From Gammaproteobacteria bacterium (GTDB taxonomy: Bacteria > Pseudomonadota > Gammaproteobacteria > UBA6429 > Thiohalophilaceae): a stretch of 40,957 nt of DNA. The stretch spans positions 1 to 40,957 of the forward strand of contig QILH01000296.1 in the NCBI GenBank assembly GCA_003233255.1, in the 5' to 3' direction. The translations under genes were made by a program, and so were the position numbers. The notes under the pieces were generated by a model that was not told the origin of the DNA, ran no database searches, and was given only the letters and a program-made list of their open reading frames with translations. Shown here one piece after another: positions 2,450 to 40,957 of this stretch (position 1 is the stretch's first letter; every line of letters begins with the position of its first letter).

Positions 2450-2467
2450 TATTTCGGCATCCACCCT

Positions 2468-9767: not shown

Positions 9768-9880
9768 ATATGTTAGTGGCCGTAGGTTCCAGCGCAAAAT
9801 TATTTTGCCGAGCAGGCTATTTTTTGCCGGAAATTTCATTAAAATATACATAAAATCATACACTTAAAGTATATAGTGGT

Positions 9881-9896
9881 TGGCAGGTTTATTGCA
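9881..9896 (+). promoter_or_regulatory. Sigma54-type promoter for flgJKL
   Basis: TGGCAG-GTTTA-TTGCA with GG-N10-GC spacing, 45 nt upstream of the flgJ ATG, inside a 173-nt flgI-flgJ gap. Confidence 0.65.
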
Positions 9897-9940
9897 TTTC
9901 TATTCGTAATAAAGGCTATAGAACATGGAATTTTGTCTCA

Positions 9941-10837
9941 ATGCTAAGTAATAATACGCAATCTGTATATACCGATATTCAAGGCATGGCTCGGCTACGC
10001 ACTCAGGCGCGTAACGATCCTGAAGCCACCTTAAAACAGGTCGCAAAGCATTTTGAAAGTTTATATATGAATATGATGCTAAAAAGTATGCGTGCTGCGA
10101 GCTTTGGCGATCCTAATTTTGATTCCAACAGTAGCACAATGTATCGAGATATGTATGACAGTCAAATGGCATTACAGTTGAGCGAACAGCAAGGTATCGG
10201 GTTAGCGGATATGTTGGTCAAGCAATTACAAAAGAGTATGCCGGCAACCAGCAATGAAAATAAATCTGATAACGTTGAGTTCAATACGATCCCTCAGGGT
10301 ATTACTGCATCTCGGCATAAAACAGGATCTATCGATCCGGATAAATTTAACTCGAAAAATGAGTTTGTAAGTATTTTAATGCCTTATGCTGAGAAAGCGG
10401 CAGATGAATTAGAGGTCGCGCCACAAGTATTAATTGCCCAGGCTGCATTAGAGACAGGTTGGGGGCAACACATGCAGCGTTTACCAAACGGCAAAAGCAG
10501 TTATAACCTGTTTAATATTAAAGCTGGTTCGTCCTGGTCTGGGCCGGAGGTAAACATCAAGGCCCTGGAATACAGGAATGGAATTGCGGAAAAAACGAAT
10601 TCTTCTTTTCGAGTGTATGGCTCATTGCAGGAGAGTTTTGATGATTATGTTCAGTTTATAAAGTCTAACCCTAGATATCAGAACGCCCTGGCTGTTTCAA
10701 ATGATCCGGAGGCCTATACATATGAATTACAAAAAGCGGGTTATGCAACCGATCCAGATTATGCAGAAAAAATTAATAATATTTTTCAGCGAGAAATAAT
10801 TAGTGCGCCGTATTCAGAGTATCTACACGAAGTTTGA
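9941..10837 (+). CDS. flgJ: FlgJ, rod-binding domain plus peptidoglycan hydrolase (glucosaminidase) domain
   Basis: 298 aa. The N-terminal rod-binding motif is VAKHFESLYMNMMLKSMR. The C-terminal muramidase-like region reads AQAALETGWG...YNLFNIKA...GYATDPDYAEKI. Confidence 0.9.
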   Translation: MLSNNTQSVYTDIQGMARLRTQARNDPEATLKQVAKHFESLYMNMMLKSMRAASFGDPNFDSNSSTMYRDMYDSQMALQLSEQQGIGLADMLVKQLQKSMPATSNENKSDNVEFNTIPQGITASRHKTGSIDPDKFNSKNEFVSILMPYAEKAADELEVAPQVLIAQAALETGWGQHMQRLPNGKSSYNLFNIKAGSSWSGPEVNIKALEYRNGIAEKTNSSFRVYGSLQESFDDYVQFIKSNPRYQNALAVSNDPEAYTYELQKAGYATDPDYAEKINNIFQREIISAPYSEYLHEV

Positions 10838-10853
10838 ATCTTGAGGTAATATA

Positions 10854-12968
10854 ATGGCGGGTGGTGATTTATTAGGTATTAGTACTTCAGGGGTGCAGGC
10901 CGCGCAGCGGGCTTTGTCGACCGTGAGTCATAATATCGCTAATTCTTCTACCCCAGGCTACTCTCGCCAGAGGACAGATCTAGATACCCGCTCACCGCAA
11001 TTTGCCGGTAACGGTTCGATTGGTACGGGTGTGGTAGTCAACAGTGTTGATCGGTATTACGATGAATTTCTTACCTCAGAGGTTCGCCATACAAATTCAT
11101 TGAGTAAGTTTCTTGATAAGAGTTATGAGTTTACAACGCAAGTCGATAATCTTTTAGCCGATCCAGAAGCAGGTCTGGCGCCGGCCTTGTCTGAATTTTT
11201 TGATTCGGTCAATGGGGTGGCAAATGAACCCACCTCTAATGCTTCTCGTCAGGTTCTATTGAGCACTTCACGAAATCTGTCTGATCGATTTGCTTTTTTA
11301 AACGAACGCTTTGAATCGCTTCGTAAGGGCGTTAATCAGGATATGAAGGGTATGGTTGGCCAGGTAAATCAGCTTGCCAAAGGTATAGCAGAATTAAATA
11401 ATACCATCGTCAGAGCTCGTGAGGTTACCGATAAACCGGCAAATGATTTGCTGGATCAACGGGATAGACTGGTTCAGGAACTATCAGGCTTGATCAATGT
11501 ACGTACCACTATTCAGGATGATGATCGTATGAACGTTTTTATCGGTAATGGACAAACGCTTGTTATTGCTGATGTATATGAAGAATTAGGGACAAAGCTG
11601 AATGAGTATGATCCTTCTCAGCTTGATGTGATATTTAAAGGCAGCGGCCAGGAAATAGTGATAAATCAATTTCTCTCGGGTGGAGAGCTCGGCGGATTAA
11701 TTAAATTTAGAAAAGAAATTCTCGCGCCAGCACAAAATGAGCTAGGTCGGATAGCGATCGGTATTACCCAGTCATTTAATAATCAACATCGCCTTGGGAT
11801 GACGATGAATAATGAACTGGGTGGAAATTATTTCCGTCCAATTGACCTGAATGCGGCACTGGTTTTACCCAGCAATACGAATCGGGGTGACTTAAGAATT
11901 AACTCAGAAATTGTTGATACTAATAAATTGACGACCAGCAATTATCAGTTAACCTACAAAAATGGCCAATATGAATTATTACGTCTGGATGATGCGAAGG
12001 TAATCGGTCAATTTACCAGTTTACCTCATGAGATAGAAACCGATGGGTTCAAATTAACAATGGATGTGGGTGCGATAAAGGACGGTGATCGTTATATTAT
12101 TCAGCCGACTCGACGGTCAGCCGATATTTTTTCTGTTGCTATCAATACGGTTGATGAGATAGCTGCGTCAACCCCCATACGGGCCGAGGCGGATATTAAT
12201 AATCTGGGAAATGCCGATATTGAGATTACTCAAATCACCGATGTTGATAATACGGCCTTTAACGGTGCACCCGGCAAATTAAGCCCACCATACGTTATTC
12301 GATTTATCGATGAGAAAAATTTTGAAATATTAGATAATTCGGGTAAAGCGATTACTATCAAACAGGCAGCAACCGCGGATGATCCAGCGATTAATTTAAA
12401 TCAGTCACGTGGAACCGGTACAGATAATGCTGACAGTGAAACAGTAGGCAAGGAAAAACATGATCGAGATGACAAACAAAATACCGCCGGAGGCTTGTCA
12501 AAAGTTGAAACGGCGATAGCCTACGATCCTGGTACCGGAGCCACGATATTCCCGACACCTGGCGGCGTTGATCGCGGTATGCATATCCGTATCGATGGTA
12601 AACCAAAAACAGGGGACATGTTCAGAATAGAATATAACAAGGATGGTATAAGCGATAATAAAAACGCCCTTGCTCTAGCTGCGTTACAGACTAAACCTAC
12701 CTTGCTTAATGGTACTTCTGATTATGCACAGACTTATGGTCAACTGGTTTCCAGAGTAGGTAGTCGAACTCATGAGCTGGATATTAATCGCCAGGCGCAA
12801 ATGTTATTGCTCAATCAGGCCGTTGCATCGAAAGAGGAAATGTCTGGAGTGAACCTGGATGAAGAAGCAGCTGAAATGATACGCTATCAAAATATGTATC
12901 AGGCCAATGCGAAAGTCATTGCTGCTGCCAATCAAACCTTTCAAATCCTTATGGATGCATTCCGCTAA
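10854..12968 (+). CDS. flgK: Hook-filament junction protein FlgK (HAP1)
   Basis: 704 aa. N-terminus TVSHNIANSSTPGYSRQ and C-terminus GVNLDEEAAEMIRYQNMYQANAKVI. Long central insert. Confidence 0.9.
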   Translation: MAGGDLLGISTSGVQAAQRALSTVSHNIANSSTPGYSRQRTDLDTRSPQFAGNGSIGTGVVVNSVDRYYDEFLTSEVRHTNSLSKFLDKSYEFTTQVDNLLADPEAGLAPALSEFFDSVNGVANEPTSNASRQVLLSTSRNLSDRFAFLNERFESLRKGVNQDMKGMVGQVNQLAKGIAELNNTIVRAREVTDKPANDLLDQRDRLVQELSGLINVRTTIQDDDRMNVFIGNGQTLVIADVYEELGTKLNEYDPSQLDVIFKGSGQEIVINQFLSGGELGGLIKFRKEILAPAQNELGRIAIGITQSFNNQHRLGMTMNNELGGNYFRPIDLNAALVLPSNTNRGDLRINSEIVDTNKLTTSNYQLTYKNGQYELLRLDDAKVIGQFTSLPHEIETDGFKLTMDVGAIKDGDRYIIQPTRRSADIFSVAINTVDEIAASTPIRAEADINNLGNADIEITQITDVDNTAFNGAPGKLSPPYVIRFIDEKNFEILDNSGKAITIKQAATADDPAINLNQSRGTGTDNADSETVGKEKHDRDDKQNTAGGLSKVETAIAYDPGTGATIFPTPGGVDRGMHIRIDGKPKTGDMFRIEYNKDGISDNKNALALAALQTKPTLLNGTSDYAQTYGQLVSRVGSRTHELDINRQAQMLLLNQAVASKEEMSGVNLDEEAAEMIRYQNMYQANAKVIAAANQTFQILMDAFR

Positions 12969-28140: not shown

Positions 28141-29571
28141 ATGCCTGCGGCCATAAAATCTTCGCTACGAGTTGCACGACAAAAAATCTGGTCTGCCTCT
28201 ATTTCAGTATGTGTAGATCGTTTAAAAGAACCCGCAGGAATTATTGTTGAAGGTAAGCTGAACCGAATGGTGGGGTTAACCTTAGAGGCGGTAGGTTGTC
28301 ATGCTGCAATCGGAGCACGCTGTCTGGTTGATAGCAATGACAATCAACCTATTGAAGCTGAGGTGGTAGGCTTTGCAAATGAACGTCTATTTTTGATGCC
28401 TACCGGTAGTATCCAGGGGCTTCGTCCAAACGCACGAGTTATTCCAACCGAACGTGTTTATGAAGCACCGGTTGGCCATGAATTGTTAGGGCGTGTTCTT
28501 GATGGCGCAGGACGTCCTTTAGACGGTAAAGGTGCATTAAATACAACGCACACACTACCTCTTACCGGTAGACAAATTAATCCCCTATCACGTCAACCCA
28601 TTGAACAACCTCTAGATGTGGGGGTGAGGAGTATTAATTCTTTGCTAACCATTGGCCGAGGTCAACGCATGGGCTTGTTTGCAGGTAGTGGCGTTGGTAA
28701 GAGTGTATTGCTCGGAATGATGACCAAGTTTACCAGTGCCGATGTGATCGTTGTTGGTCTTATCGGTGAACGTGGCCGTGAAGTAAAAGAATTTATTAAC
28801 AAGATTCTTGGCGAAGTGGGTATGTCGCGCTCGGTTGTGGTTGCCGTTCCGGCTGACTATACACCGGTCATGCGTATGCACGGTGCAGCCATGGCAACCA
28901 CGATTGCTGAATATTTCCGAGATCAGGGGCAGCATGTTTTATTGTTAATGGACTCACTAACACGTTATGCGCAGGCACAACGAGAAATAGCCTTAGCGAT
29001 AGGAGAGCCCCCTGCGACAAAAGGGTATCCACCATCAGTATTTGCTCGTTTACCCCAACTGGTTGAACGTGCTGGCAATGGTGATAAAGACGGTGGTTCA
29101 ATAACAGCAATTTATACAATTCTTACCGAAGGCCATGTGGAACAGGATCCTATTGCGGATGCGGCACGTGCAATTCTGGATGGTCATATCGTATTGTCGC
29201 GTGATCTGGCCGAAGCGGGACAATATCCGGCAATTGATATTGAGTCATCAATAAGCCGAACCATGAATGAAATCGTTAGTGACGAACAATTACAACTTGC
29301 GCAACGTTGCCGACTAATTAATTCAATTTATCGTCAAAATGAAGATCTTATTAGCGTGGGTGCCTATACTGTCGGTACCGATGCGCGTATAGATGAGGCT
29401 ATTAATTTTTATCCGACACTGCAACGATTTTTAAAGCAGGATATGAATACGGCGATGGACTGGAAAACCAGTGTTAATGGATTGCAAGCTATGTTTAATG
29501 AACATGATGTAAGACAACAGACGGCAGCTGCACAAATGAATACCGACATGATTAGTCATGGCCAAACCTAA
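28141..29571 (+). CDS. fliI: Flagellum-specific ATPase FliI
   Basis: 476 aa. Walker A GSGVGKS, Walker [12 protein letters not shown]1/T3SS ATPase core. Confidence 0.95.
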
Positions 29572-30016
29572 GTCAGAGCGTTTTAAAGTGTTGCAGAAAC
29601 TTGCCGGGCGGTATGAGAACATTGCTGCCAGGGATCTGGGCTTGTCTGTTGGGAACCTGGATGCACAAAGGTCACGTCTTATAGAATTACAGAAATTTCG
29701 CGATGAATATACGCAACAATTTAATGTGTCGGGTATGTCAGGCCTTAACAGTATGGCAATGCAATCTTTTCAGCAATTTATTAGCCAGATAGATGTTGCT
29801 ATACAACAGCAAAAACAAACGATTCTATTTGCCGAGCAAGATCACCAAAAGAAAAAACATAACTGGGAGGACAAACACAAGGAAACTCGCATTTATGACA
29901 AAACAATTGAAAAATTTGTTGTAAATGAACAAAATGATAAAGAACAATGTGATCAGGTTGAGATAGACGATTGTAATAATGCCCGATTGAAACCAAAAGA
30001 GTTCGATATCAAATAG
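29558..30016 (+). CDS. fliJ: Flagellar export chaperone/stalk protein FliJ
   Basis: 152 aa coiled-coil protein. Overlaps the fliI 3' end by 14 nt. Canonical position. Confidence 0.8.
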
Positions 30017-30063
30017 TTGTAATCTTCGTCAAGGGTTAACTTCTACTTCTTTTACCTCATTTC

Positions 30064-30079
30064 TGGCACGTCCATTGCA
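30064..30079 (+). promoter_or_regulatory. Sigma54 promoter for fliK
   Basis: TGGCAC-GTCCA-TTGCA is a perfect match to the TGGCAC-N5-TTGCA consensus, about 40 nt upstream of the fliK ATG. Confidence 0.75.
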
Positions 30080-30116
30080 AAATACCTTCAAACAAGTACT
30101 CATTTGAGGGAGTTTA

Positions 30117-31232
30117 ATGTCCGAATTTGCACCATCATTCGTTGCGGGTAGCATGCCTAAGGAAGCCGAGTTGGCCTCTGCCAGGCCATTAGCTGAAACA
30201 ACAGGTGATTCGGAAGCTTCTGATTTTGCATCACTTTTTGGTGAGATGGATTTTGCTTCAGTCAATTCAGATGATCCATCAGCTGCCCCAGCAGCGGATA
30301 GTTTAGTCTTACTTGAGGCGCTGGTAACCCGTCCCTTTAGCAATACCGACTCGCTTGCACATCCCGATAGTAAACTCTCGTTGCCTGCAAATTTACAACC
30401 CGGCGGCAACTTGTTGCCGTCATTATCTCCGTTAGTTGCCATGAGCGGCTACAGCGTTTTTGCCGATCAAGAGGGGGCTGCGGCGATTGCTTTTCAAGGT
30501 GACGGCAAAAATATTGTGGCATCAGGCACTCATTATGTAAATTCGGGTGTGCCAGCGATGCAACAAACTCAGGCTCAGTTGCGTGACATGATGCAGGCCA
30601 GTGGCATGCTCAACCAAAATGTTGACATGTTTGCGGTGCCGAAGTTGGATGCAGGTAAACAGCTCGAGATGCTTGTCAGTTTGACTCATCAGAATACAGC
30701 AATGCCAGTTGATAACCTGATCAGCTCTGGTGTGCAACCGTCAACACATGTCCTGTTGGGTCTACAGGGGGTAACAGAATTTTCGAATGTTTTAGCTGCC
30801 AGTAGTCGTAGTCCTGAAGCGATGACCGCGAGCTTAAATCAGCCCCAATGGAATCAACAGGTTGGTGATCGAATTAACTGGATGATTTCACAAGGGTTGC
30901 GACAGGCAGATATTCGATTAAATCCTCCGGAATTAGGGATGTTAGAGATACGGGTACAAATCCAGGGTGATCAGGCCAGTATTCAATTTAACACCGCACA
31001 TACAGACGTTAAGGATGCTCTGGATAATGCGATGCCGCGGTTAAGAGAAATGTTAGCCGCAAATGGCCTTAATCTGGCGGATGTAAATGTATCGCATCAG
31101 GGACATCAGCAGGCTGGGCAGGGTGACGGATCGAGGTCTGGCCACCCATCCCGATCTGAAGCTGAACAGAATGTCGAAAATCAGGCTACGAAGTCGTTTT
31201 TAAGTAATGGCATTATTGATTTTTATGCCTGA
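30117..31232 (+). CDS. fliK: Hook-length control protein FliK
   Basis: 371 aa. Low-complexity Ala/Ser/Pro N-terminal half and a C-terminal Flg_hook-type domain (IRLNPPELGMLEIRVQIQGDQASIQFNTAHTDVKDALD). Confidence 0.85.
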   Translation: MSEFAPSFVAGSMPKEAELASARPLAETTGDSEASDFASLFGEMDFASVNSDDPSAAPAADSLVLLEALVTRPFSNTDSLAHPDSKLSLPANLQPGGNLLPSLSPLVAMSGYSVFADQEGAAAIAFQGDGKNIVASGTHYVNSGVPAMQQTQAQLRDMMQASGMLNQNVDMFAVPKLDAGKQLEMLVSLTHQNTAMPVDNLISSGVQPSTHVLLGLQGVTEFSNVLAASSRSPEAMTASLNQPQWNQQVGDRINWMISQGLRQADIRLNPPELGMLEIRVQIQGDQASIQFNTAHTDVKDALDNAMPRLREMLAANGLNLADVNVSHQGHQQAGQGDGSRSGHPSRSEAEQNVENQATKSFLSNGIIDFYA

Positions 31233-31274
31233 CTAATTCGGCGTAAATAAATAATTTGTTTTAATAATAATTGC

Positions 31275-31301
31275 TAAAGCTCAAAACAGACCAGTCGATA
31301 A
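31275..31301 (+). promoter_or_regulatory. Sigma28-type promoter for the cheY-cheA-cheW-mcp... operon
   Basis: TAAAGCTC-N11-GTCGATAA against TAAAGTTT-N11-GCCGATAA (6/8 and 7/8, exact spacing), about 115 nt upstream of cheY. Confidence 0.7.
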
Positions 31302-31416
31302 GACCCTTAGAGTATGGCCGGAGTATTTCAAGCGGCTAAATACGCGCACATAGTACATGGTTATACGAATGGTAAATTTTACAAAGTAAATGGATATATT
31401 TAAGGAGTTTTAGTTC

Positions 31417-31782
31417 ATGGCTACCCGAATTCTTGCAGTTGATGATTCAACCTCAATGCGGCAAATGGTTACATTCACGCTAAAAGGTGCAGGTTATGAG
31501 GTAGAAGAAGCGGCAGATGGTCAACAGGCATTAGATATCGCAAAGGGTGGAAAATTTGATTTAGTGCTCTCGGATGTGAATATGCCCGTAATGGACGGAA
31601 TTACGCTGGTCAAAGAATTGCGATCATTATCAAATTATAAATTTACACCAATATTGATGCTAACAACGGAAAGCACCGGAGATAAAAAAACCGAAGGGAA
31701 ATCCGCTGGTGCAACTGGCTGGATAGTAAAACCATTTAATCCAGAACAATTACTTACAACGATCAAGAAGGTGCTTGGTTAA
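31417..31782 (+). CDS. cheY: Single-domain response regulator CheY
   Basis: 121 aa. ILAVDDS, LVLSDVNMPVMDG, LMLTTE, IVKPF. AAGGAG RBS. Confidence 0.9.
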   Translation: MATRILAVDDSTSMRQMVTFTLKGAGYEVEEAADGQQALDIAKGGKFDLVLSDVNMPVMDGITLVKELRSLSNYKFTPILMLTTESTGDKKTEGKSAGATGWIVKPFNPEQLLTTIKKVLG

Positions 31783-31803
31783 GCACCGTTGCCGGGGACA
31801 GGT

Positions 31804-33834
31804 ATGTCGATTGATATTTCACAGTTTTTGCAGACTTTCTTCGAAGAGAGCTTTGAAGGACTCGATATTATGGAGTCTGAATTACTGAATCTTAATGTGG
31901 GTTCGGCCGACAAAGAAACGATCAATACGATCTTTCGTGCGGCTCATTCTATCAAAGGTGGAAGCGGTACTTTTGGCTTAAGCTCGGTTGCCGATTATAC
32001 TCATGTTTTAGAAACTTTGCTTGACGAGATGCGTGATGGCAAGCGTGATGTAACACAACAATCGGTTGACGTAATGTTGCAGTCGGTTGACGTCTTACGT
32101 GAGATGTTAAATGCGCTACAGGATAATCTAGATCTGGATCATGATCGTATAGCCTCATCGCATAAGCAATTAACGGACTTGCTTTCGTCGGATACGAGTT
32201 TACCTGCAGCCAGCAGTACGGATTCGAATGCCCCTAAAGATTCAGATACGCAAGAAGAAAATTCTTCCGGCGGTTGGATTATTAATTTTAGTCCCTACCC
32301 GGATATGATGAAAACGGGTAATGATCCGGTCAGAATTATTCGTGAGTTAGAAGAGCTGGGCAATTTAACGATAGAATTGAATGATGAGAAAGTCCCTTCA
32401 CTTGATGAGCTTGAGCCAGAAAGTTGTTATTTATCGTGGAAGTTAACTCTGCACGCAGATGTTCCCATTGATGCGGTGCAGGATGTTTTTTCCTGGGTAG
32501 ACGATGAATGCGAGCTGCAAATAAATGAAATAATCATTAGTGATGGTTACTCCGGCCCAGATCGTCGCGCTCCAGAATCAACCGGGAAAGCTCGGAAAGC
32601 AGCCAGCAAAGAACAAACTTCAATTCGGGTTGGTATCGATAAAGTCGATGATCTCATTAATATGGTCGGCGAGCTGGTAATAACTCAGTCCATGTTACAT
32701 CAGTTACATGATGTTGAAGAATTTAATCAGAACACTCTGGAACGGTTACAGGATGGGCTGGCACAACTGGAACAGCATACTCGCGAATTACAGGAAAACG
32801 TTATGCGCATTCGCATGATGCCGATCAGTTTTGCGTTTCAACGTTTTCCTCGGTTGGTGCGCGACTTGAGTAATCAGTTTGGTAAAAATATTGAACTAAA
32901 ACTTACTGGCGAACAAACTGAGCTAGATAAAACGGTGATGGAGAAGATTGGTGATCCACTTGTGCATCTGGTGCGTAATTCACTGGATCACGGTATAGAA
33001 ATGCCTGAGATACGTGCTGAAGCAGGAAAACCCGAAACAGGAACCATCGAACTTAATGCCTTCCATCGCGGTGGAAATATAATTATTGAAATCAAAGATG
33101 ATGGTGCCGGGTTAAATACCCAAAAAATATTACAGAAAGCAAAAGAGAATGGTTTGGTCAAAGAGGGAGACACGATTACAACTGAACAGGTCAATGATTT
33201 GATATTCCAGCCCGGATTTTCAACTGCGGATGTGGTCAGTGATGTGTCTGGGCGTGGGGTGGGTATGGATGTGGTGCGTCGTAATATTCGTGCCCTCAAT
33301 GGTAGCGTGGAAGTCGTATCGACTCCCGGAGTGGGATCGGTCTTTACCATCCGTTTACCCATTACCCTGGCGATACTCGATGGACAACTTGTACGAGTAG
33401 GAAAAGAAACCTATGTGATCCCGTTAATTTCGATTATTGAATCATTACAGGTGAAAAATGAATTTGTTAATGCTGTCACGGGTAGCGCTGAAGTGTATAA
33501 GCTGCGTGATGAATATATTCCGATTTTGCGTTTATATGAGATATTTGATGTCGAACCGGATACAAAAAACTTATCCGCTGGGATGTTAGTTATTGTCGAA
33601 TCGGAAGGGCAAAAGCTGGCCATATTCGTCGACGAATTACTTTCTCAACAGCAAGTGGTTATTAAAAGTCTGGAAACAAACTTTAGAAAAATTGATGGTT
33701 TGTCGGGCGCTACGATATTGGGCGATGGCACAGTAGCATTAATTGCAGACATTGTTGGCGTCTATGAGTTGTACCAGAAGAAGATAGTTCCATCCGAATT
33801 AAAAGTGATTCATGATGGCGGAGTCGCAGCATGA
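31804..33834 (+). CDS. cheA: Chemotaxis histidine kinase CheA
   Basis: ATG at 31804 (MSIDISQFLQTFFEES). Hpt motif RAAHSIKGGSGTFG, dimerisation and HATPase regions (DPLVHLVRNSLDHG; DDGAGL; GRGVGMDVV), C-terminal CheW-like domain. Confidence 0.95.
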   Translation: MSIDISQFLQTFFEESFEGLDIMESELLNLNVGSADKETINTIFRAAHSIKGGSGTFGLSSVADYTHVLETLLDEMRDGKRDVTQQSVDVMLQSVDVLREMLNALQDNLDLDHDRIASSHKQLTDLLSSDTSLPAASSTDSNAPKDSDTQEENSSGGWIINFSPYPDMMKTGNDPVRIIRELEELGNLTIELNDEKVPSLDELEPESCYLSWKLTLHADVPIDAVQDVFSWVDDECELQINEIIISDGYSGPDRRAPESTGKARKAASKEQTSIRVGIDKVDDLINMVGELVITQSMLHQLHDVEEFNQNTLERLQDGLAQLEQHTRELQENVMRIRMMPISFAFQRFPRLVRDLSNQFGKNIELKLTGEQTELDKTVMEKIGDPLVHLVRNSLDHGIEMPEIRAEAGKPETGTIELNAFHRGGNIIIEIKDDGAGLNTQKILQKAKENGLVKEGDTITTEQVNDLIFQPGFSTADVVSDVSGRGVGMDVVRRNIRALNGSVEVVSTPGVGSVFTIRLPITLAILDGQLVRVGKETYVIPLISIIESLQVKNEFVNAVTGSAEVYKLRDEYIPILRLYEIFDVEPDTKNLSAGMLVIVESEGQKLAIFVDELLSQQQVVIKSLETNFRKIDGLSGATILGDGTVALIADIVGVYELYQKKIVPSELKVIHDGGVAA

Positions 33835-33844
33835 GAGGAATATT

Positions 33845-34360
33845 ATGACCGATGCAGAAATGCAAATTGACGAGCTGAAACGTGAAGACGCTGAAACGCG
33901 TGAGTTTTTAACGTTTATGTTGGCTGGCGAAGAGTACGGTGTAGATATATTGCGAGTACAGGAAATCAAGGGTTGGGATTCTGTAACTAATATCCCAAAT
34001 ACACCGGATTACATTCGTGGTGTGATTAATTTACGCGGTACGATTGTTCCTATTATCGATATGCGGCTGCGGTTTAAACTGGAGCCCCTTGAATATGGTC
34101 CAACTACGGTTGTGATTGTACTAAAAGTAGAAAAAAATTCAGAGTTCGTGCGCACTATGGGTGTCGTGGTGGATGCGGTTTCTGATGTGCATGATGTACC
34201 AGCCAACCAGGTTAAAGCCTCACCCGACTTTGGTACGACGGTAGATACCGATTTCGTAAAAGGACTTGCGACGGTGGGTGAAAAAATGGTCATTGTGTTG
34301 GATATAGATTATATGCTGAATTCGCAGGAGCTTGCGTCGCTAGATGAGGTTATGGAGTAA
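33845..34360 (+). CDS. cheW: Coupling protein CheW
   Basis: ATG at 33845 after GAGAGG gives about 171 aa. EFLTFMLAGEEYGVDILRVQEIKGW..IRGVINLRGTIVPIIDMR. Confidence 0.9.
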   Translation: MTDAEMQIDELKREDAETREFLTFMLAGEEYGVDILRVQEIKGWDSVTNIPNTPDYIRGVINLRGTIVPIIDMRLRFKLEPLEYGPTTVVIVLKVEKNSEFVRTMGVVVDAVSDVHDVPANQVKASPDFGTTVDTDFVKGLATVGEKMVIVLDIDYMLNSQELASLDEVME

Positions 34361-34465
34361 GCGTCTATGTTAGACAAAAACACAATTTTAGGTCAGCTGT
34401 TTCGTATGGGCGATAAATTTATTTATTGAAGATTATAGTATGGAGTTTTAATAGAGGTGAAGGCA

Positions 34466-37006
34466 ATGAAAGTAATTCAAGGTTTAAAGGGTTGGCAGAA
34501 GCTGGTGATTAACGTTTGCTTGCTCTCGGTGGCGCCATTAATATTATTGTATGTCGTTTCGACAGGTGCTGCCGTTTCGATTACCTCGCTTGAGGTTATA
34601 GTTGCGCTGGTGTTTTTTGTATCGTCACTTGTTGTTAGTAGCATGATGATGGGCTTCTCCAGTAGTGCTAATGTGGCGAATGCGAATCGACTCCAGTCGG
34701 CGCTTGATGCGGTAACCACTAATGTAATGGTGGCGGATGCAGACAATAACATTGTCTATATGAACGAATCAGTTACTGAAATGTTTAATTTAGCGGGCAA
34801 TGATATTCGCAAAGATTTACCTGGCTTCAATGAAAATGATTTGCTCGGTGGCAATATGGATCAGTTTCATAAAGATCCATCACATCAACAACGTTTAGTG
34901 GCTGGGTTGAAAGATACGGTTAAAGCAGAAATAAAAGTGGGTGGGCGCACTTTTGGCCTGGTTGCTACGCCTATATTTGATGAATCAAACTCACGCATCG
35001 GTACCGCCATTGAATGGGCGGATCGCACGGATGAGGTTTCGGCTAATAATACGCGCGCTATCCTTGAGGCAGAAAATGCACGCGTCAAATCTTCACTGGA
35101 TGCGGTGACCACAAACGTAATGATTGCAGATGAGAATAATGACATTGTTTACATGAATAATGCATTGGTTGGAATGTTTAATGAAGCGGGAGATGATATA
35201 CGAAAAGATTTGCCCGAGTTTAATGAGAAAAATCTGATGCATGGGAATATGGATCAGTTTCATAAAGATCCATCGCACCAACGCAAAATGGTGGGCAGTC
35301 TGAAAGAAACAATTAGCGCGGAAATAGTCGTTGGGGGGCGTACATTTTCACTGGTTGCTACCCCAGTATTCAAAGACGATGGTATTCGTTTAGGTACAGC
35401 TGTGGAATGGAAGGATCGTACTGCCGAATTAAAAGTTATTGAGAAAGAGCGACATTTAATGAACGAAGCGATGCGTGTCCAGGCAGCTTTGATGGCGGTG
35501 ACATCAAATGTGATGGTGGCCGATGTCGATAATAATATTATGTTTATGAATGAAGCATTAAAAGAAATGTTTGATGCAGCACAAAATGATATTCGCAAAG
35601 AATTACCAAATTTTGATCGCACGAAATTACTGGGCGGAAATATGGATCAATTCCATAAGAACCCCGCTCACCAGCAGCGTCTTGTTAGTGAACTCAAAAG
35701 CACAATTAAGGCCGAAATTGTAGTGGGTGGTCGAACTTTTTCACTTGTGGCCACGCCGGTATCTAATGAAGAAGGTGAACGTCTGGGTACGGCAATAGAA
35801 TGGAAAGATCGAACGGCTGAATTGCAAATCGAAAAAGAAGTTGAAAGCGTTGTAGTTTCCGCTGCTAATGGCGATTTAAGTAAACGTTTGGCTGTTGAAG
35901 GTAAGACAGGCTTCTTTAGAAATGTTAGCGAAGGAATTAATCAATTGGCGGCTGTTTGCGATGATGTAATCCAGGATACTATTCGCGTATTCGGTGCTAT
36001 GGCCGATGGCAATCTAACCGAGAAAATCAACAAAGATTATCAGGGTTCATTTGAACAATTAAAAAACGATGCTAACGCAACGATTGATAAATTTGTTCAG
36101 GTAGTCAATGAGATACAAAACACAGCAGCTTCTGTTAAGACTGGGGCATCTGAAATCTCGATTGGTAACCAGTCACTAAGTCAACGAAACGAAGAGCAGG
36201 CCTCCAGCCTTGAAGAAACGGCCTCCAGCATGGAAGAGATGACCAGTACGGTACGCCAGAATGCGGATAATGCGAATCAGGCGAACCAACTGGCAACTGC
36301 AGCTCGTAGTCAGGCTGAAAAAGGCGGTGAAGTTGTCGCTACGGCTGTGAATGCGATGAGTGAGATTAACACCAGCAGTAAAAAAGTTGCCGATATTATC
36401 AGTGTGATCGATGAAATAGCGTTCCAGACTAATCTGCTTGCTTTAAATGCTGCCGTGGAAGCGGCACGAGCAGGCGAACAAGGGCGTGGATTTGCGGTGG
36501 TGGCATCAGAAGTTAGAAATTTGGCACAACGTTCGGCGGGTGCGGCGAAAGAGATCAAGGATCTGATCGAAGAGTCAGTGAGTAAGGTTGATGAGGGTAC
36601 CGAATTAGTTAATGCCTCAGGTGAAACACTGGAAGAGATTGTCAATGGCATTAAGAAAGTGAGCAATATTGTTGCTGAGATCGCCGCGGCCAGCGCAGAA
36701 CAGGCAAGCGGTATTGATCAGGTTAATAAGGCGGTGACACAACTTGATGATATGACGCAACAAAATGCGGCGTTAGTAGAAGAGGCGGCTGCGGCTAGCG
36801 AGGCGATGCAGGAACAGTCGGAAGGTCTATCGGACTTAATGACCTTCTTTTCTACGGGCACTGATAGTGATCCAGGTGTTGTCAACGCGGTACCGAAAGT
36901 TGATGTGGTGAAACCCACACACCGCCAGCCCGTAAAGGTTGCTGCTGCAGGAGGTCAGTCAAAACCTAAAGCTATTCCTGATGATGAAGAATGGGAAGAA
37001 TTTTAA
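34466..37006 (+). CDS. Aer2-like methyl-accepting chemotaxis protein. Domains: TM hairpin, three tandem PAS (haem-type) domains, di-HAMP-like region, MA signalling domain, C-terminal EWEEF pentapeptide
   Basis: Two N-terminal hydrophobic segments. Three 131-aa repeats, each containing NMDQFHK(D/N)P(S/A)HQ and (I/V)EW(A/K)DRT. GDLSKRL and GNLTEKI HAMP-like segments. MA hairpin [38 protein letters not shown]. The ATG at 34466 is preferred over the tracked GTG at 34457. Confidence 0.85.
34685..35836 (+). repeat. Three in-frame tandem repeats of 393 nt (the PAS modules of the MCP)
   Basis: The motif AATATGGATCA recurs at 34853, 35246 and 35639, an exact 393-nt period. Copies 1 and 2 share a 29-nt identical run (aatatggatcagtttcataaagatccatc). 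The copies are otherwise diverged. Confidence 0.85.
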
Positions 37007-37106
37007 GGACAATTTATTATCAGTGGTTGATTTATAGTAATTGAGTCGTCCTGAATGGCGTAATACTCTAAATCTATTCTTTCGATTATATGGTTATTAA
37101 TAATAG

Positions 37107-37877
37107 ATGAGGCAAAGAATGGTGCGCCTGGTTTCTGTGGTCAATCAAAAAGGTGGAGTAGGTAAAACCACCACAGTTGCGAATCTTTCGCATATGCTGG
37201 CCTTAAGGGGCAATAAAGTAGCAGCAATTGATTTTGATCCGCAGGGCAGTTTAACCGTGAGCCTGGGTAAAAATTCGCGCAGTTTATCCGGTATGGATGA
37301 AGTGTTGTTAGAAGGTGCAGGAATTGATGAAGTCATGCACGAAGTCCGAGATAATCTTCAACTGGTTGCATGTGGGCCTCAGCTAGCGGCCTGTGAACAA
37401 AAACTGGAAAACACCTCAGCGGTGGCTAAACGTTTACGTAAAACTTTAAAAAACCTGGTTGACTATGATTATGTCTTACTGGATTGTCCACCGTCTTCTG
37501 GTTTCTTAGTCGTTAGTGCCTTATATGCAACTGAAGAAATATTAATACCGGTAGCGGGTGATTTCCTTGCATTACATGGAATGTCACACTTAATGGGTAC
37601 CCTGGCTCAATTCGAATCATCCTTGAAACTTAAACATAAACGCTGGATCGTGGTTACGCGTTTCCATCCCCGTCGGCGTCTTTCTCAGGGTGTAATTGAT
37701 AATCTGGTTGAACATTTCCCTGCTACGGTTTTAAAGACGCCGATTCGAGAAACTTCAGCATTAGCTGAAGGCCCGAGCTTTGGTTTGACCATAAGTGAAT
37801 ATCGAAATAAGAGTAACGGTTCGGCTGATTATGAAAAATTGGCTGTGGATTTTTGTAAAGGTAGAACAATACAATGA
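37107..37877 (+). CDS. Orphan ParA/MinD-family (deviant Walker A) ATPase, analogous by context to ParC/PpfA
   Basis: VVNQKGGVGKTTT (KGGxxGKT deviant Walker A), DFDPQGSL, VLLDCPPS. 256 aa, or 252 aa from the ATG at 37119, which has a GAGG RBS. No parB-like gene is adjacent. The stop overlaps the next ATG (ATGA). Confidence 0.85.
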   Translation: MRQRMVRLVSVVNQKGGVGKTTTVANLSHMLALRGNKVAAIDFDPQGSLTVSLGKNSRSLSGMDEVLLEGAGIDEVMHEVRDNLQLVACGPQLAACEQKLENTSAVAKRLRKTLKNLVDYDYVLLDCPPSSGFLVVSALYATEEILIPVAGDFLALHGMSHLMGTLAQFESSLKLKHKRWIVVTRFHPRRRLSQGVIDNLVEHFPATVLKTPIRETSALAEGPSFGLTISEYRNKSNGSADYEKLAVDFCKGRTIQ

Positions 37878-38791
37878 CAAAACAAAAAAAGAATATTATC
37901 GGTCATGACCCATTAGCCTGGATTTCTATTGATGACGAAGATGAAGTTTCTGAAGGAAAAAAATCATTAGGAGCTAATTCGAAGCAACAAACTGCGTCAA
38001 ACTCTGAAGCGCATCCATTTGGCATTGATGTTGGTGCCTTTTTACTTGGGTATGGGCTTATTCAGGATAATTTAACTGATATTGTATCTGATTTTTATAA
38101 GACATTATTTTTAACCCATTCAGAAGTTAAGCTCCTGTTTGAGAATTCAGATACGGAAGAACAACAACAAAAGCTGGCTAGAGCAATTTCATTGTTGGCT
38201 GATAACATCAATGATGTTGATAAATTGCTTACAGTTTTATCTGGTTTAGGAGAACGCCATCAACAATACGGTGCAGTTACCGAGCACTTTAATGCGGTAA
38301 ACGTTACCTTATTGTCGACCATAAAGACACATATCGGCCGAAAATGGACGAAGAAAATCTCTGCGAGCTGGGAAGTTGTTTTAGACAGAGCGGCAGAAGC
38401 TATGTTATCCGCCTATACAGATGAGTCAGAATTATCTCCAAGCGATGCAGAACCTGAGTCAACTGAGCCAGTAGAAGTAATTAATGACCAAAATAATGAT
38501 ACGGAACAGGCCAGTAATGAGGAGGGAGTGCTGTACCTGGCCGCATCACAGGATATTTCAACCGTCGAGGAATTGCTGGATAGAATAAAATCTGGCATTG
38601 ATGTTGGTCTGGTTAATATTAATATATCAAATGTTACGCGCATTGATGCGTCTTGTTTGCAGATATTATATTTACTTTTTCGCGATGCGGATATATATGG
38701 ATACGAAACAAAAATTAAAGGCTCATCGGAAGCGTTTGATCGATCTGTGCATTTGTTGGGTATGAGTAATGTATTAAAAGTGGCCGTATAA
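37874..38791 (+). CDS. Fusion protein: Lys-rich N-terminal peptide, VHb-like globin domain, acidic linker, STAS domain
   Basis: Residues about 60-180 align by eye with Vitreoscilla-type haemoglobin: DFYKTLFLTHSEVKLLF against TFYKNLFAKHPEVRPLF; EQQQKLA against EQPKALA; LGERH (F8 His, codon 38258-38260); W..V.....A. The C-terminal 90 aa are SpoIIAA/STAS-like (VNINISNVTRIDASCLQILY...IKGSSEAFDRSVHLLGM). Confidence 0.7.
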   Translation: MTKQKKNIIGHDPLAWISIDDEDEVSEGKKSLGANSKQQTASNSEAHPFGIDVGAFLLGYGLIQDNLTDIVSDFYKTLFLTHSEVKLLFENSDTEEQQQKLARAISLLADNINDVDKLLTVLSGLGERHQQYGAVTEHFNAVNVTLLSTIKTHIGRKWTKKISASWEVVLDRAAEAMLSAYTDESELSPSDAEPESTEPVEVINDQNNDTEQASNEEGVLYLAASQDISTVEELLDRIKSGIDVGLVNINISNVTRIDASCLQILYLLFRDADIYGYETKIKGSSEAFDRSVHLLGMSNVLKVAV

Positions 38792-39658
38792 ATGAAAGCA
38801 TTATCGACAAAAACAGAAGAAGCATTTAAAAAAAATCGTGAATTTGAGTTTAATGAGAGAGATTTTAAATTCATTGTTAATTTGGTAGGTGAGCGTACGG
38901 GCATTGTATTATCTGAGACCAAACGCGAAATGGTTTACAGCCGATTAACACGACGTATACGCGAACTTGGAATAAAGGACTTTACTACATATTGCAACAT
39001 GTTGCGTGACGGGGATCCTAATGAATTAATTAACTTTACAAATGCCTTGACCACAAATTTGACGTCTTTTTTTCGCGAACCTCATCACTTTGAATATCTG
39101 GCAAATACGGTTCTACCTGCTCTGGCGTCGACTAAAAAACAGCGACAGTTACGAATCTGGTCGGCAGGATGCTCTTCCGGAGAAGAGCCTTATACCATCG
39201 CCATGACGGTGCGCGAAGTTTTTCCAGAAAATTCTGGTTGGGATATAAAGATCATGGCCACGGATCTTGACTCAAATATGGTCGACAGGGCGCAGGCAGG
39301 AATCTACGTAGATGAAAGGGTAACCGGAATAGATAAACGGCGCCTAAAACGTTGGTTTGTTAAAGGCAAGGGGCAGAATTCAGGAAAAGTTAAAATAAAA
39401 CCAGAACTCCAGCAACTCATCACGTTTAAACAGTTAAATCTACTCCATGATTGGCCCATGCGAGAAGCCTTTGACGTTATTTTTTGTCGTAATGTTGTTA
39501 TCTATTTTAATAAAGATACACAGAGGGTTTTATTTTCCCGTTACTCAGATGTTATTGCTGACCATGGCCATTTGTTTATTGGCCATTCTGAGTCACTGAA
39601 CAAAGTAAGTGATGACTTTAATTTAATCGGCAAGACAATATATCAGAAGATCAGCTGA
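38792..39658 (+). CDS. cheR: Chemotaxis methyltransferase CheR (operon copy, CheR2-like)
   Basis: 288 aa. TTNLTSFFREPHHF, RIWSAGCSSGEEPYTI, VIFCRNVVIYF. The ATG directly follows the upstream stop (TAAATG). Confidence 0.9.
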   Translation: MKALSTKTEEAFKKNREFEFNERDFKFIVNLVGERTGIVLSETKREMVYSRLTRRIRELGIKDFTTYCNMLRDGDPNELINFTNALTTNLTSFFREPHHFEYLANTVLPALASTKKQRQLRIWSAGCSSGEEPYTIAMTVREVFPENSGWDIKIMATDLDSNMVDRAQAGIYVDERVTGIDKRRLKRWFVKGKGQNSGKVKIKPELQQLITFKQLNLLHDWPMREAFDVIFCRNVVIYFNKDTQRVLFSRYSDVIADHGHLFIGHSESLNKVSDDFNLIGKTIYQKIS

Positions 39659-40320
39659 TGGTTGCAGTAAACAGAGAAATAGATGAACGAAATCATCCTA
39701 AACCGATCTGTATAAGTGGTTTTGAGAATATCAACCGTTACTGGGACAGGCGCAATAATATTCACGCTGCAAAAATACTCCCAGGGGAATTTTATGTTAC
39801 AAAATTTAATGAGGCGGTTGTTACCGTATTGGGATCCTGTGTTTCTGCCTGCATTCGCGATCGAGTAAAACATATTGGCGGTATGAATCATTTTATGTTA
39901 CCGGCAGGTAACGAAGATAATCTTGAAGAGTTAAACAAAGCAGGAAATGCAGCACGCTATGGGAATTTCGCGATGGAACAACTAATTAATACTATATTAA
40001 GCAACGGAGGAAACCGTGAGCACCTTGAAGTCAAGTTATTTGGTGGCGGTAAGGTTCTAGGAGGTATGGATCAAATTCTTATCGGGGATAAAAATATTGC
40101 GTTCATACGCGGTTATGTGATTCTGGAAGGTTTGAGTGTGGTGGCACAGGATCTTGGTGACGTCTATCCAAGGAAGGTCATGTATTTTCCTAACACAGGG
40201 AAGGTCTGGCTTAAAAAACTTCACAAAGTGGATAATAAAACGATTGCCAGTCGTGAAAAACGTTACAAAGTCGAAATTCAGCAACAACCTGTTGAAAGTG
40301 ATATTGAGTTATTTGATTAA
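39658..40320 (+). CDS. cheD: Chemoreceptor glutamine deamidase CheD
   Basis: 220 aa. [14 protein letters not shown] (catalytic Cys region), [16 protein letters not shown]. The start overlaps the cheR stop (TGATG). Confidence 0.9.
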
Positions 40321-40325
40321 TCACC

Positions 40326-40957
40326 ATGGCTAAAATAAAAGTTGTAATTGTAGATGACTCAGCTCTGGTTAGACAGATATTAACCGAGATACTAAATTCG
40401 GATCCCGCTATTGAAGTGGTTGGTCATGCGCAGGATCCTATTATTGCACGAGACAAAATAAAATTACTCAATCCAGATGTGATTACCCTCGATGTTGAAA
40501 TGCCAAAGATGGATGGGGTGACTTTCCTGCGTAATCTAATGCGGCTGCGTCCAATGCCGGTTGTGATGATTTCATCGCTTACTGAGAAAGGGGCCGATAT
40601 AACCTTGCAGGCTATGGAAATCGGTGCGGTTGATTTTATTGCCAAACCCAGGATCGATGTTCAGGAAGGACTTGATGAGTATAAAGATGAGATCATTGCG
40701 AAAGTAAAAATGGCCGCTAAGGCAAAAGTCCGAGCCTACAATGATACTCCAATGAGAAAGATGAATATCGATCCTAAACTTAATGCTGATGCGGTGTTAA
40801 GTAGACGATCAAATAAACATTTTAAAACAACCGATAAGCTGATCGCGATAGGGGCATCTACCGGAGGCACGGAGGCGATTCGTGATGTACTTGTGTCGAT
40901 GCCACCGGATGCACCTGGCATCGTAATCAGCCAGCATATCCCGGAGGCCTTCAGTGC
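40326..40957 (+). CDS. cheB: Chemotaxis methylesterase/deamidase CheB, N-terminal about 210 aa (runs off the window end)
   Basis: Not in the ORF track because there is no stop in the window. [17 protein letters not shown]...[12 protein letters not shown]...FIAKP is the REC domain. It continues with ..[32 protein letters not shown], the esterase domain with its active-site Ser motif. Confidence 0.9.

Follow-up and report, generated by a model that had tools for sequence, protein, structure and literature searches.

The window analysed here is a 40,957-nucleotide stretch of gammaproteobacterial DNA (contig QILH01000296.1), and its forward strand carries a chemotaxis gene cluster. The cluster contains cheY (31417-31782; Pfam Response_reg), cheA (31789-33834; Hpt, H-kinase_dim, HATPase_c and CheW) and cheW (33812-34360; CheW), followed by an aer2-like chemoreceptor gene (34466..37006). 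Downstream of the receptor gene lie genes for a ParA/MinD-like ATPase (37107-37877; AAA_31/CbiA) and a globin-STAS protein (37874-38791; Globin and STAS_2), and then cheR (38792-39658; CheR) and cheD (39658-40320; CheD). The last gene, cheB, starts at 40326 and continues beyond the window end at 40957. The translation of 40320-40955 holds a receiver domain and then the beginning of a methylesterase, and a full CheB is present in a syntenic locus, L001. That locus also keeps both the ParA-like and the globin-STAS genes, which in the window lie between aer2 and cheR. The resulting order, cheY-cheA-cheW-aer2-(2 genes)-cheR-cheD-cheB, matches Aer2-containing F7 clusters in gene content and order (PMC10107281, PMC7184735). 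The operon of Pseudomonas aeruginosa Aer2 (PaAer2), cheY-cheA-cheW-aer2-cheR-cheD-cheB, has the same order. In the window, fliK immediately precedes the che cluster, within a gene cluster for a polar flagellum.

The receptor open reading frame (34457..37006, forward strand) encodes 849 amino acids when read from a GTG start at 34457 and 846 when read from an ATG at 34466. The ATG is the likelier start codon. It is preceded by a Shine-Dalgarno-like GAGGTG, and the database gene call (P0001, 846 aa) begins at the same position. Residue numbers throughout follow the 849-aa version used in the preliminary description of this DNA. As a result of the likelier ATG start, the actual numbers are probably 3 lower. 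Pfam models match the product as three PAS domains, HAMP_2 and MCPsignal, and its PDB matches include Tsr, 3VOL and 4HI4. The protein is very probably a tri-PAS-haem chemoreceptor of the Aer2 family, tethered to the membrane by a short N-terminal hairpin. After the hairpin the layout, all cytoplasmic, is PAS1-helix-PAS2-helix-PAS3-di-HAMP-kinase control-flexible tail-EWEEF. Computation established the domain architecture and fold, the correspondence of residues, the gene context and the conservation across the family.

The predicted membrane hairpin (34502..34657) consists of two hydrophobic segments, approximately aa 16-35 and 45-67, separated by a loop of about 9 residues, with no periplasmic domain. 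In the N-terminus the Kyte-Doolittle profile peaks twice above 2.4, and tethering to the inner membrane is predicted solely from this hydropathy. The AlphaFold2 (AF2) model places N-terminal helices at 12-36 and 43-57 with low confidence (pLDDT 32-59). The short transmembrane hairpin, lack of a periplasmic domain and absence of N-terminal poly-HAMP proposed in the preliminary description are consistent with both the hydropathy and the model. The hairpin without a periplasmic domain was considered as an unusual trait of this receptor, and this was rejected, as a similar short transmembrane-containing N-terminus is found in 44 of 267 homologues, proteins with 4 to 6 PAS domains among them.

The cytoplasmic region begins with three in-register repeats with an exact period of 131 aa / 393 nt, at 34685-35077, 35078-35470 and 35471-35863. 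A family HMM places the three PAS modules at aa 77-193, 208-324 and 339-455, N-terminal to the di-HAMP. The first repeat comprises PAS1 and a helical linker (aa 194-207), the second comprises PAS2 and a helical linker, and the third contains PAS3, the core PAS, which leads into the di-HAMP. Each copy carries the motif NMDQFHK(D/N)P(S/A)HQ, with His138, His269 and His400 encoded by CAT codons at 34868-34870, 35261-35263 and 35654-35656. Each also carries (I/V)EW(A/K)DRT, with Trp187, Trp318 and Trp449 encoded by TGG codons at 35015-35017, 35408-35410 and 35801-35803. The His-to-Trp spacing is 49 residues in all three copies. The repeats, the motifs and the spacing thus agree with what had been read from the DNA at the outset.

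The closest solved structure is the PAS domain of PaAer2/McpB (PA0176; 3VOL, 4HI4), which aligns without gaps to repeats 1, 2 and 3 (E 2.5e-37, 2.2e-32 and 4.9e-35) at 50-52% identity. Repeat 1 is 51% identical to 4HI4/3VOL and repeat 2 is 50% identical to 3VOL. The repeats are not a product of chance, since each of them alone matches the same solved domain. When chain index 5 of 4HI4 is taken as residue 173, His138, His269 and His400 align on PaAer2 His234, and Trp187, Trp318 and Trp449 align on Trp283. The PaAer2 residues F233, K235, P237, H239, Q240, L264 and D285/T287 are kept in all three copies as well, including the Leu at the Leu264 position and, at the C-terminus of each PAS domain, the DxT motif, which reads DRT in each module. 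A literature search for His234/Trp283 gave no match. The modules align less closely with VcAer2 (6CEQ; E 1e-12 to 1e-15), at about 30% identity as opposed to about 51% for PaAer2. These alignments, together with structural searches, bear out the earlier assignment of the repeats as Aer2-type PAS domains with His and Trp at the PaAer2 haem-pocket positions.

Generic Pfam models (PAS, PAS_4, PAS_8 and PAS_9) also match the repeat region, and they do not discriminate the cofactor. They would fit FAD-binding redox PAS domains of the Aer type, or generic small-molecule PAS domains, in place of haem sensors. This reading is highly improbable, because every copy retains an intact haem-ligating His motif and the sole PAS structures found by sequence are those of haem-bound Aer2 proteins (3VOL, 4HI4 and 6CEQ). 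The match to the aerotaxis receptor structure 31cj is confined to the signalling module (aa 549-797) and leaves out the PAS region, and on this basis a receptor of the E. coli Aer type with an FAD-PAS was rejected.

The AF2 model of the receptor (mean pLDDT 78.5) shows three PAS folds linked by helices of approximately 25 residues, with a long helix starting directly after each PAS I-beta strand. The first repeat forms a PAS fold with pLDDT of about 80-86, and its linker helix spans aa 191-215. The best PDB matches of the model in Foldseek are again 3VOL, 4HI4 and 6CEQ, with target TM scores of 0.82-0.89 and rmsd of 1.7-2.6 A. PAS3 is followed by a di-HAMP unit (35822..36091; ~aa 456-545), the counterpart of PaAer2 HAMP4-5. 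Pfam HAMP_2 matches aa 484-544 within it, and the segment containing PAS3 and the di-HAMP (aa 339-545) aligns without gaps to residues 23-228 of 3VOL (E 9e-61). The di-HAMP helices are modelled at 453-470, 485-516 and 531-559 with pLDDT of 86-92. The kinase-control module (36092..36856; MCPsignal, 5.5e-56) comes next. Residues 514-800 align with residues 231-517 of E. coli Tsr without insertions or deletions (E 1e-84), and Glu-Glu pairs occupy the Tsr methylation-site positions 297, 304, 311 and 493. Tsr is a 36H receptor, and the gapless alignment to it assigns the signalling module, at the level of sequence, to the 36H type. The protein ends in the pentapeptide EWEEF (36989..37003), a predicted CheR tether that fits the x-[HFYW]-x2-[HFYW] motif. 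Such a C-terminal motif has been called a fundamental trait of receptors of the Aer2-like kind (PMC7184735). The last PAS joined directly to a di-HAMP and a kinase-control module has been termed the Aer2 core (PMC10107281), and the window receptor contains this core, as PAS3 runs directly into the di-HAMP and MCPsignal modules.

PaAer2, like the window receptor, has an xWxxF pentapeptide, but it is a soluble protein with one PAS and three N-terminal HAMP domains, whereas the window receptor has three PAS modules, no N-terminal HAMP and a hairpin. VcAer2 of V. cholerae has the same succession of tandem PAS-haem domains, di-HAMP and 36H core, but is soluble and contains two PAS domains. The background on VcAer2 and on gas sensing by PaAer2 follows PMC10107281 and PMC13401364. 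[quoted passage not shown] 2022, PMC10107281). In common with the window receptor it has three tandem PAS domains with the E-eta His, I-beta Trp, H-beta Leu and DxT, followed by a di-HAMP and 36H kinase control, an identical EWEEF (PMC10107281), and a che cluster with CheA, CheW, CheY, CheR, CheD and CheB. VvAer2 is predicted to be soluble, in contrast to the hairpin-bearing window receptor, and its PAS domains, which belong to two Pfam families, are mutually 38-59% identical, whereas those of the window receptor reach 64-68%. The VvAer2 cluster encodes RsbU, RsbV and a second MCP, in place of which the window cluster has the ParA-like and globin-STAS genes. LiAer2 of L. interrogans (Orillard & Watts 2022), as described in PMC10107281, is a membrane-bound tri-PAS-haem receptor. 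From that summary it resembles the window receptor in being membrane-embedded, with three N-terminal PAS-haem domains and a core of PAS3, di-HAMP and kinase control. The same summary gives LiAer2 a potential periplasmic ligand-binding domain, unlike the hairpin and ~9-residue loop of the window receptor, and attributes to it a hexacoordinate deoxy haem and an inverted signalling polarity in E. coli as further differences.

By homology to PaAer2, VcAer2 and VvAer2, we infer that the window receptor binds haem, that O2 is its ligand and that labour is split among its three PAS domains. One b-type haem per PAS would be coordinated by the conserved E-eta His. On ferrous haem, O2 would displace the H-beta Leu and would be stabilised by the I-beta Trp. 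A movement of the C-terminal DxT (DRT) may then travel along the heptad-registered linker helices, with receptor output tuned by PAS2 and, to a lesser degree, by PAS1. Adaptation would occur by methylation of the Glu-Glu pairs, with CheR tethered to EWEEF and with CheB and CheD supplied by the same operon. The PAS domains of VvAer2 all bind O2 and b-haem, the latter in pentacoordinate form. Signalling there comes from PAS3 and is modulated by PAS2, and PAS1 can largely be dispensed with (PMC10107281). In VcAer2 the penultimate PAS modulates the terminal PAS.

The same architecture could also work with PAS3 as the only true O2 sensor, with PAS1 and/or PAS2 serving mainly as spacers or dimerisation scaffolds, or sensing redox, NO or CO. 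VvPAS1 provides a precedent, as it oxidises readily, is indifferent to replacement of the I-beta Trp and is largely dispensable, and the authors of the VvAer2 study mention redox or other ligands as options for it (PMC10107281). The atypical behaviour of VvPAS1 and of LiAer2 PAS2 implies that a His and a Trp in a module do not guarantee typical behaviour. The window modules also depart from PaAer2 at one pocket position. PaAer2 has a His at position 251, and the corresponding residues are V, I and I in PAS1, PAS2 and PAS3, so that the G-beta Tyr/His is absent from all three. As a consequence, their O2 affinity or stability may be different. The N-terminal modules vary among close relatives, and a receptor with only two PAS domains (P0027/L001) is 84% identical to that of the window. 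Against this, the full pocket set (F-H-K-x-P-x-H-Q, Leu, Trp and DRT) is present in all three modules, the modules are under purifying selection, and PAS1 is 87% identical to its positional counterpart in the orthologue P0004. Each of the nine Aer2 PAS domains examined so far binds O2, and their affinities are similar (PMC10107281). An O2-sensing role confined to PAS3 is therefore the less probable arrangement, although it retains appreciable weight beside three O2-binding modules.

The age of the triplication can be read from the divergence of the copies. The 131-aa repeats are pairwise 59-61% identical in amino acids and 62-64% identical in nucleotides, with 36-44% identity at the third codon position. 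Synonymous sites are saturated between copies (pS 0.69-0.81), and dN is approximately 0.33. The triplication is thus old and under purifying selection, as had been proposed from the DNA. The P0004 orthologue, which comes from an independent data set (Logan ERR2639424), is 82% identical to the window receptor and contains three modules in positional correspondence at 83-87%. The positional orthologues of PAS2 are module 2 of P0004 (83%) and module 1 of P0027 (81%), and the two PAS domains of P0027 match PAS2 and PAS3 of the window. The exact 393-nt spacing, and the longest exact in-register DNA run (29 nt, across the His motif in copies 1 and 2), might suggest that the repeats arose by recent tandem duplication or are an artefact of assembly, without functional significance. 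This explanation can be set aside with near certainty. It is refuted by the saturation of synonymous sites, by the low DNA identity of the copies (62-64%) and by the same three modules in P0004. The spacing itself is the modal one in the family.

The origin of the array was compared with that of the Vibrio one using the Aer2 of Vibrio sp. RE88 (L068), which stood in for VvAer2 itself. Its modules are 26-38% identical to those of the window. Since the window modules are closer to each other and to the PaAer2 PAS than to the Vibrio modules, the triplication is independent of the Vibrio one. As judged from these sequence comparisons, the window array was amplified independently from a PaAer2-like core PAS, and a module-by-module orthology with the Vibrio array is rejected. 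The tri-PAS design has accordingly arisen more than once.

A survey of the family found 892 modules of the PAS-haem type across 267 homologues, with 2 to 8 per protein. The His is kept in 864 of the 892 modules (97%) and the Trp in 888 (99.6%), and the position of PaAer2 H251 is a Tyr in 585/892 and a His in 156/892. Inter-PAS linkers are 17, 24 or 31 residues long in 592 of ~620 junctions. The His-His spacing is 131 in 343 of ~620, with spacings of 130 and 138 frequent alongside. The mode at 131 aa arises because the PAS is fixed at 106-107 residues and the linkers are quantised at 17/24/31. The exact period noted earlier is therefore the family mode, and its status as a special trait of this gene was rejected. 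Aer2 homologues with 3 to 8 PAS modules are abundant. The homologue copy-number surveys were ranked by summed score, and multi-PAS proteins are over-represented in them. In a less biased species-level genome sample, one PAS was present in 33 receptors, two in 12, three in 7 and four in 1.

The preliminary description regarded three PAS domains in series as a noteworthy expansion, while allowing that such receptors might prove to be common and already described. They are both, as VvAer2 and LiAer2 have been published and homologues with 3-8 modules abound. The tri-PAS-haem design is already characterised, and the window gene adds one example from an uncultured gammaproteobacterium, the impact of which is small. 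Beyond the independent origin of its array, two aspects are of modest value. The window modules are about 51% identical, without gaps, to the solved PaAer2 PAS, and they offer a convenient model for tandem PAS-haem signalling in a membrane-tethered receptor. In addition, PAS-haem arrays of 4-8 modules with heptad-quantised linkers are widespread, and no experimental study of them was found in the searchable literature.

The downstream globin noted in the preliminary description is real. It aligns with bacterial haemoglobins (3S1I, VHb and flavohaemoglobins; E 5e-16), and its LGERH falls on LGRRH with the proximal-His position kept. The globin and the Aer2 PAS array could form a joint multi-haem gas sensor, in which a ParA-positioned, tethered array may directly control flagellar aerotaxis and the STAS domain may give a partner-switching output. 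This is a speculative and rather improbable proposal, and we know of no Aer2 system for which direct control of flagellar aerotaxis has been demonstrated. No relevant paper came up in a literature search for globin-STAS or globin-Aer2 fusions. In other gammaproteobacterial lineages, tri-PAS Aer2 receptors carry a homologous globin fused at their N-terminus, as in L005.

The whole repeat region of the aer2-like chemoreceptor lies in a single open reading frame on the forward strand (34457..37006), which encodes 849 aa when read from its GTG. An SD-like GAGGTG lies 5-10 nt 5' of the ATG at 34466, where the database gene call for this protein (P0001) begins, giving 846 aa. This ATG is therefore a likelier start than GTG 34457. 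As a result, the residue numbers of the preliminary description, retained here, are probably 3 too high. The three tandem repeats occupy 34685-35077, 35078-35470 and 35471-35863 on the same strand, and each spans 131 aa or 393 nt, which bears out the exact period noted from the sequence alone. Every repeat contains the reported motifs NMDQFHK(D/N)P(S/A)HQ (with His138, His269 and His400) and (I/V)EW(A/K)DRT (with Trp187, Trp318 and Trp449), and the His-to-Trp distance is 49 in all three. Identity among the copies is 59-61% in protein and 62-64% in DNA, with only 36-44% of third codon positions matching. The copies had been described as diverged in DNA outside the His motif; indeed, the sole long identical stretch is 29 nt at that motif, between copies 1 and 2.

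Each repeat was searched singly against all PDB sequences, and in each case only three structures matched. Two are haem-bound PAS structures of P. aeruginosa Aer2 (PaAer2; 3VOL and 4HI4), with E = 2.5e-37, 2.2e-32 and 4.9e-35 for repeats 1, 2 and 3, and the third is the V. cholerae Aer2 (VcAer2) PAS, 6CEQ, with E of about 1e-12 to 1e-15. The alignments are gapless. When residues are mapped to PaAer2 (4HI4 chain index 5 = residue 173), the His and Trp of each repeat fall exactly on His234 and Trp283, the residues that the preliminary description had named. Pocket residues F233, K235, P237, H239 and Q240 (PaAer2 numbering), the H-beta Leu264 equivalent and the DxT motif, which reads DRT, are kept in all three copies. 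AlphaFold2, run on residues 1-560, gives a model (mean pLDDT 78.5) in which three PAS folds are joined by unbroken helices of ~25 residues (191-215 and 322-347) and followed by the HAMP helices. In structural comparison the model again ranks 3VOL, 4HI4 and 6CEQ highest (target TM 0.82-0.89; rmsd 1.7-2.6 A). There is good support for placing the protein among the Aer2-type PAS-haem receptors, and it is very likely a haem-binding gas sensor of this type. A FAD-containing PAS of the Aer type is excluded because the solved 'Aerotaxis receptor' 31cj matches the signalling module only.

The observation of three Aer2-type PAS modules is thus accurate. Three PAS-haem domains had been regarded as an expansion beyond the one of PaAer2 and the two of VcAer2, but a tri-PAS-haem architecture is already described experimentally, in the receptors of V. 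vulnificus (VvAer2) and L. interrogans (LiAer2), and is common in sequence databases. [quoted passage not shown] LiAer2 is summarized in the same paper as a membrane-embedded protein that bears three PAS-haem domains and perhaps a ligand-binding domain in the periplasm. The 'Aer2 core' is defined there as the last PAS, the di-HAMP and the kinase control module, with variable N-terminal domains. A 2026 review gives the same picture of tri-PAS Aer2 receptors. More than three Aer2 PAS-haem modules are not described in the literature searched, where three is the maximum.

Among the candidates scored in a full-length search, at least 3,771 proteins reached E <= 1e-30. When a single PAS was searched against a library of representatives at 50% identity, 3,754 proteins passed E <= 1e-3, and 481 of them also passed E <= 1e-30. 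An HMM built from the three window modules and the PaAer2 PAS (PaPAS) detected 892 PAS modules in 267 retrieved homologues. Together with a species-level genome sample, this copy-number survey found three-PAS receptors to be common. The best 120 full-length matches comprise proteins with two (1), three (7), four (72), five (30), six (4), seven (5) and eight (1) modules, and 147 further cluster representatives have two (96), three (37), four (11), five (2) or seven (1); both lists are ranked by summed score and favour multi-copy proteins. The species-level sample is less biased, and contains receptors with one (33), two (12), three (7) and four (1) modules. Shewanella violacea DSS12 (6 modules) and Chromobacterium violaceum (4) are named multi-PAS cases. 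Tandem arrays of 4-8 modules are abundant among the homologues (P0002, P0003, P0006, P0010, P0043 and others), and metagenomic proteins reach 7-8.

The modules are subject to common constraints. The His is kept in 864/892 modules, the Trp in 888/892, and the Asp and Thr of DxT in 862/892 each. Given this near-universality, retention of His and Trp in every window copy is a family rule and not a distinguishing trait. Of 887 modules, 667 have a His-to-Trp distance of 49. Successive His residues are 131 apart at 343 junctions, 130 at 142 and 138 at 56. Inter-PAS linker length, counted from the Thr of DxT to a set point in the following module, is 24 residues at 490 junctions, 31 at 64 and 17 at 38, in steps of exactly one heptad. 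This pattern accounts for the exact 131-aa period: the helices between modules have to hold coiled-coil register, which agrees with the in-line helical transmission put forward for VvAer2 (PMC10107281). One position departs from the family pattern. The equivalent of PaAer2 H251 is Tyr in 585/892 modules and His in 156/892, and all three window modules carry Val or Ile there (aa 155, 286 and 417; forward-strand codons 34919-34921, 35312-35314 and 35705-35707). We take this position to be the G-beta Tyr site of the first VcAer2 PAS (VcPAS1), which can help to stabilise O2. With Val or Ile in its place, the I-beta Trp would be the only residue left to stabilise O2 in the window modules.

Downstream of the repeats, PAS3 and the next 90 residues match the PAS-HAMP4-5 crystal construct 3VOL (E = 9e-61), and residues 514-800 align to E. 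coli Tsr 231-517 without any indel, which implies that the receptor shares the 36-heptad signalling module of Tsr. Where Tsr has methylation sites 297, 304, 311 and 493, this receptor has Glu-Glu pairs. The C-terminus is EWEEF, identical to the pentapeptide reported for VvAer2 (PMC10107281), and conforms to the x-[HFYW]-x2-[HFYW] tether, a "fundamental feature" of Aer2-like receptors (PMC7184735). At the other end, about 55 of the first 70 residues are hydrophobic, with hydropathy peaks at about 16-35 and 45-67 and a ~9-residue loop between them. This profile agrees with the predicted transmembrane hairpin, where AlphaFold2 places two helices with low confidence. The protein has neither a periplasmic domain nor an N-terminal HAMP. 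Short membrane-bearing N-termini with no room for a periplasmic domain occur in 44/267 homologues, 4- to 6-PAS proteins among them, so such a hairpin is not rare in the family.

The triplication had been called old and selected, and the substitution data support this. Among the window modules, Nei-Gojobori pS is saturated (0.69-0.81) and dN is about 0.33. All three modules recur in P0004, an orthologue that is 82% identical and comes from an unrelated data set (Logan ERR2639424); compared by position, they are 87, 83 and 84% identical to the window modules, and paralogous modules are 61-69% identical. The window modules are 64-68% identical to each other and 50-52% to PaPAS. Identity is only 26-38% to the Aer2 modules of a Vibrio (L068) and 27-40% to the modules of the tri-PAS receptor from a Chromatiaceae (L005). 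The window array thus probably arose by its own amplification of a core PAS like that of PaAer2 and is not homologous to the Vibrio array. The closest relatives, P0027 (locus L001, 8870-11992) and P0015, are 76-84% identical in the shared part and have a large periplasmic domain and HAMP instead of the hairpin, with two or three PAS modules. P0027, at 84% identity, has only two PAS, the counterparts of window PAS2 and PAS3 (81% identity each). N-terminal domains thus reshuffle rapidly around a constant Aer2 core inside one clade.

Architecture, fold, residue matches, operon and the constraints on the family are established here. By homology, we infer the haem ligation, O2 response and signal path as follows. 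Each PAS would hold one b-haem, with His138, His269 and His400 as ligands. O2 on the haem would push the H-beta Leu away and accept a hydrogen bond from the I-beta Trp; the DRT loop would shift, and the motion would travel along the heptad-registered linker helices. PAS2 and PAS1 may tune receptor output, and this division of labour is less certain than the identity as a haem-binding gas sensor. Adaptation would occur at the Glu-Glu sites through CheR tethered to EWEEF, together with CheB and CheD, and the hairpin would anchor the array to the membrane.

The aer2 gene is preceded by cheY, cheA and cheW and followed by genes for a ParA-like ATPase and a globin-STAS protein, then cheR, cheD and the start of cheB. 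The P. aeruginosa che2 cluster has the same order except for the two inserted genes. The insertion (ParA/MinD-like ATPase and globin-STAS, 37107-38791), the flagellar linkage and globin-Aer2 fusions are the only parts that might repay more work. Among 80 related loci, both inserted genes are common to the window and the syntenic L001 only. The ParA-like protein might position the receptor array, and the STAS domain hints at output by partner switching. The 305-aa globin-STAS protein combines a Globin domain (Pfam E 1e-12) with STAS, and its globin matches haemoglobins and flavohaemoglobins of bacteria (E 5e-16). The 'LGERH' of this globin aligns on 'LGRRH' of 3S1I, and we take its His to be the proximal F8 His. 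Haem binding is therefore plausible, as the four haem sites suggested for the operon in the preliminary description would require. Several other genomes encode tri-PAS Aer2 receptors with a homologous globin fused to the N-terminus, which argues for a functional link between the window globin and Aer2. The fusion in L005, a Chromatiaceae MAG (9740-12550; 936 aa), has a globin (Pfam E 1e-16) ~42% identical to the separate one of the window, three PAS, di-HAMP, MCPsignal and a DEWEEF end, and could hold up to four haem sites within one polypeptide. Similar arrangements occur in loci L006, L007, L010, L014 and L040. No papers on globin-Aer2 fusions were found in the literature searched.

The che cluster lies directly 3' of fliJ-fliK, at the end of a polar-flagellum set (window 29558-40957; L001 4432-17133). 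This linkage is noteworthy because, to our knowledge, the Aer2 systems studied to date do not directly control flagella. The window set includes FlgA, CheV, CheR, hook and rod genes, flagellin, FliD and FleQ/S/R. The closest genome is the MAG containing L001, labelled uncultured Ectothiorhodospiraceae bacterium, and synteny extends from fliG to cheB, with the ParA-like and globin-STAS genes included. In L001, a sigma-70-family gene (regions 2, 3 and 4), possibly FliA-like, comes after the che cluster. Genes for CheV (CheW plus receiver) and a second CheR adjoin flgA (window 1481-3352), so at least two CheR paralogues are present in this organism, which probably has a second chemosensory pathway as well.
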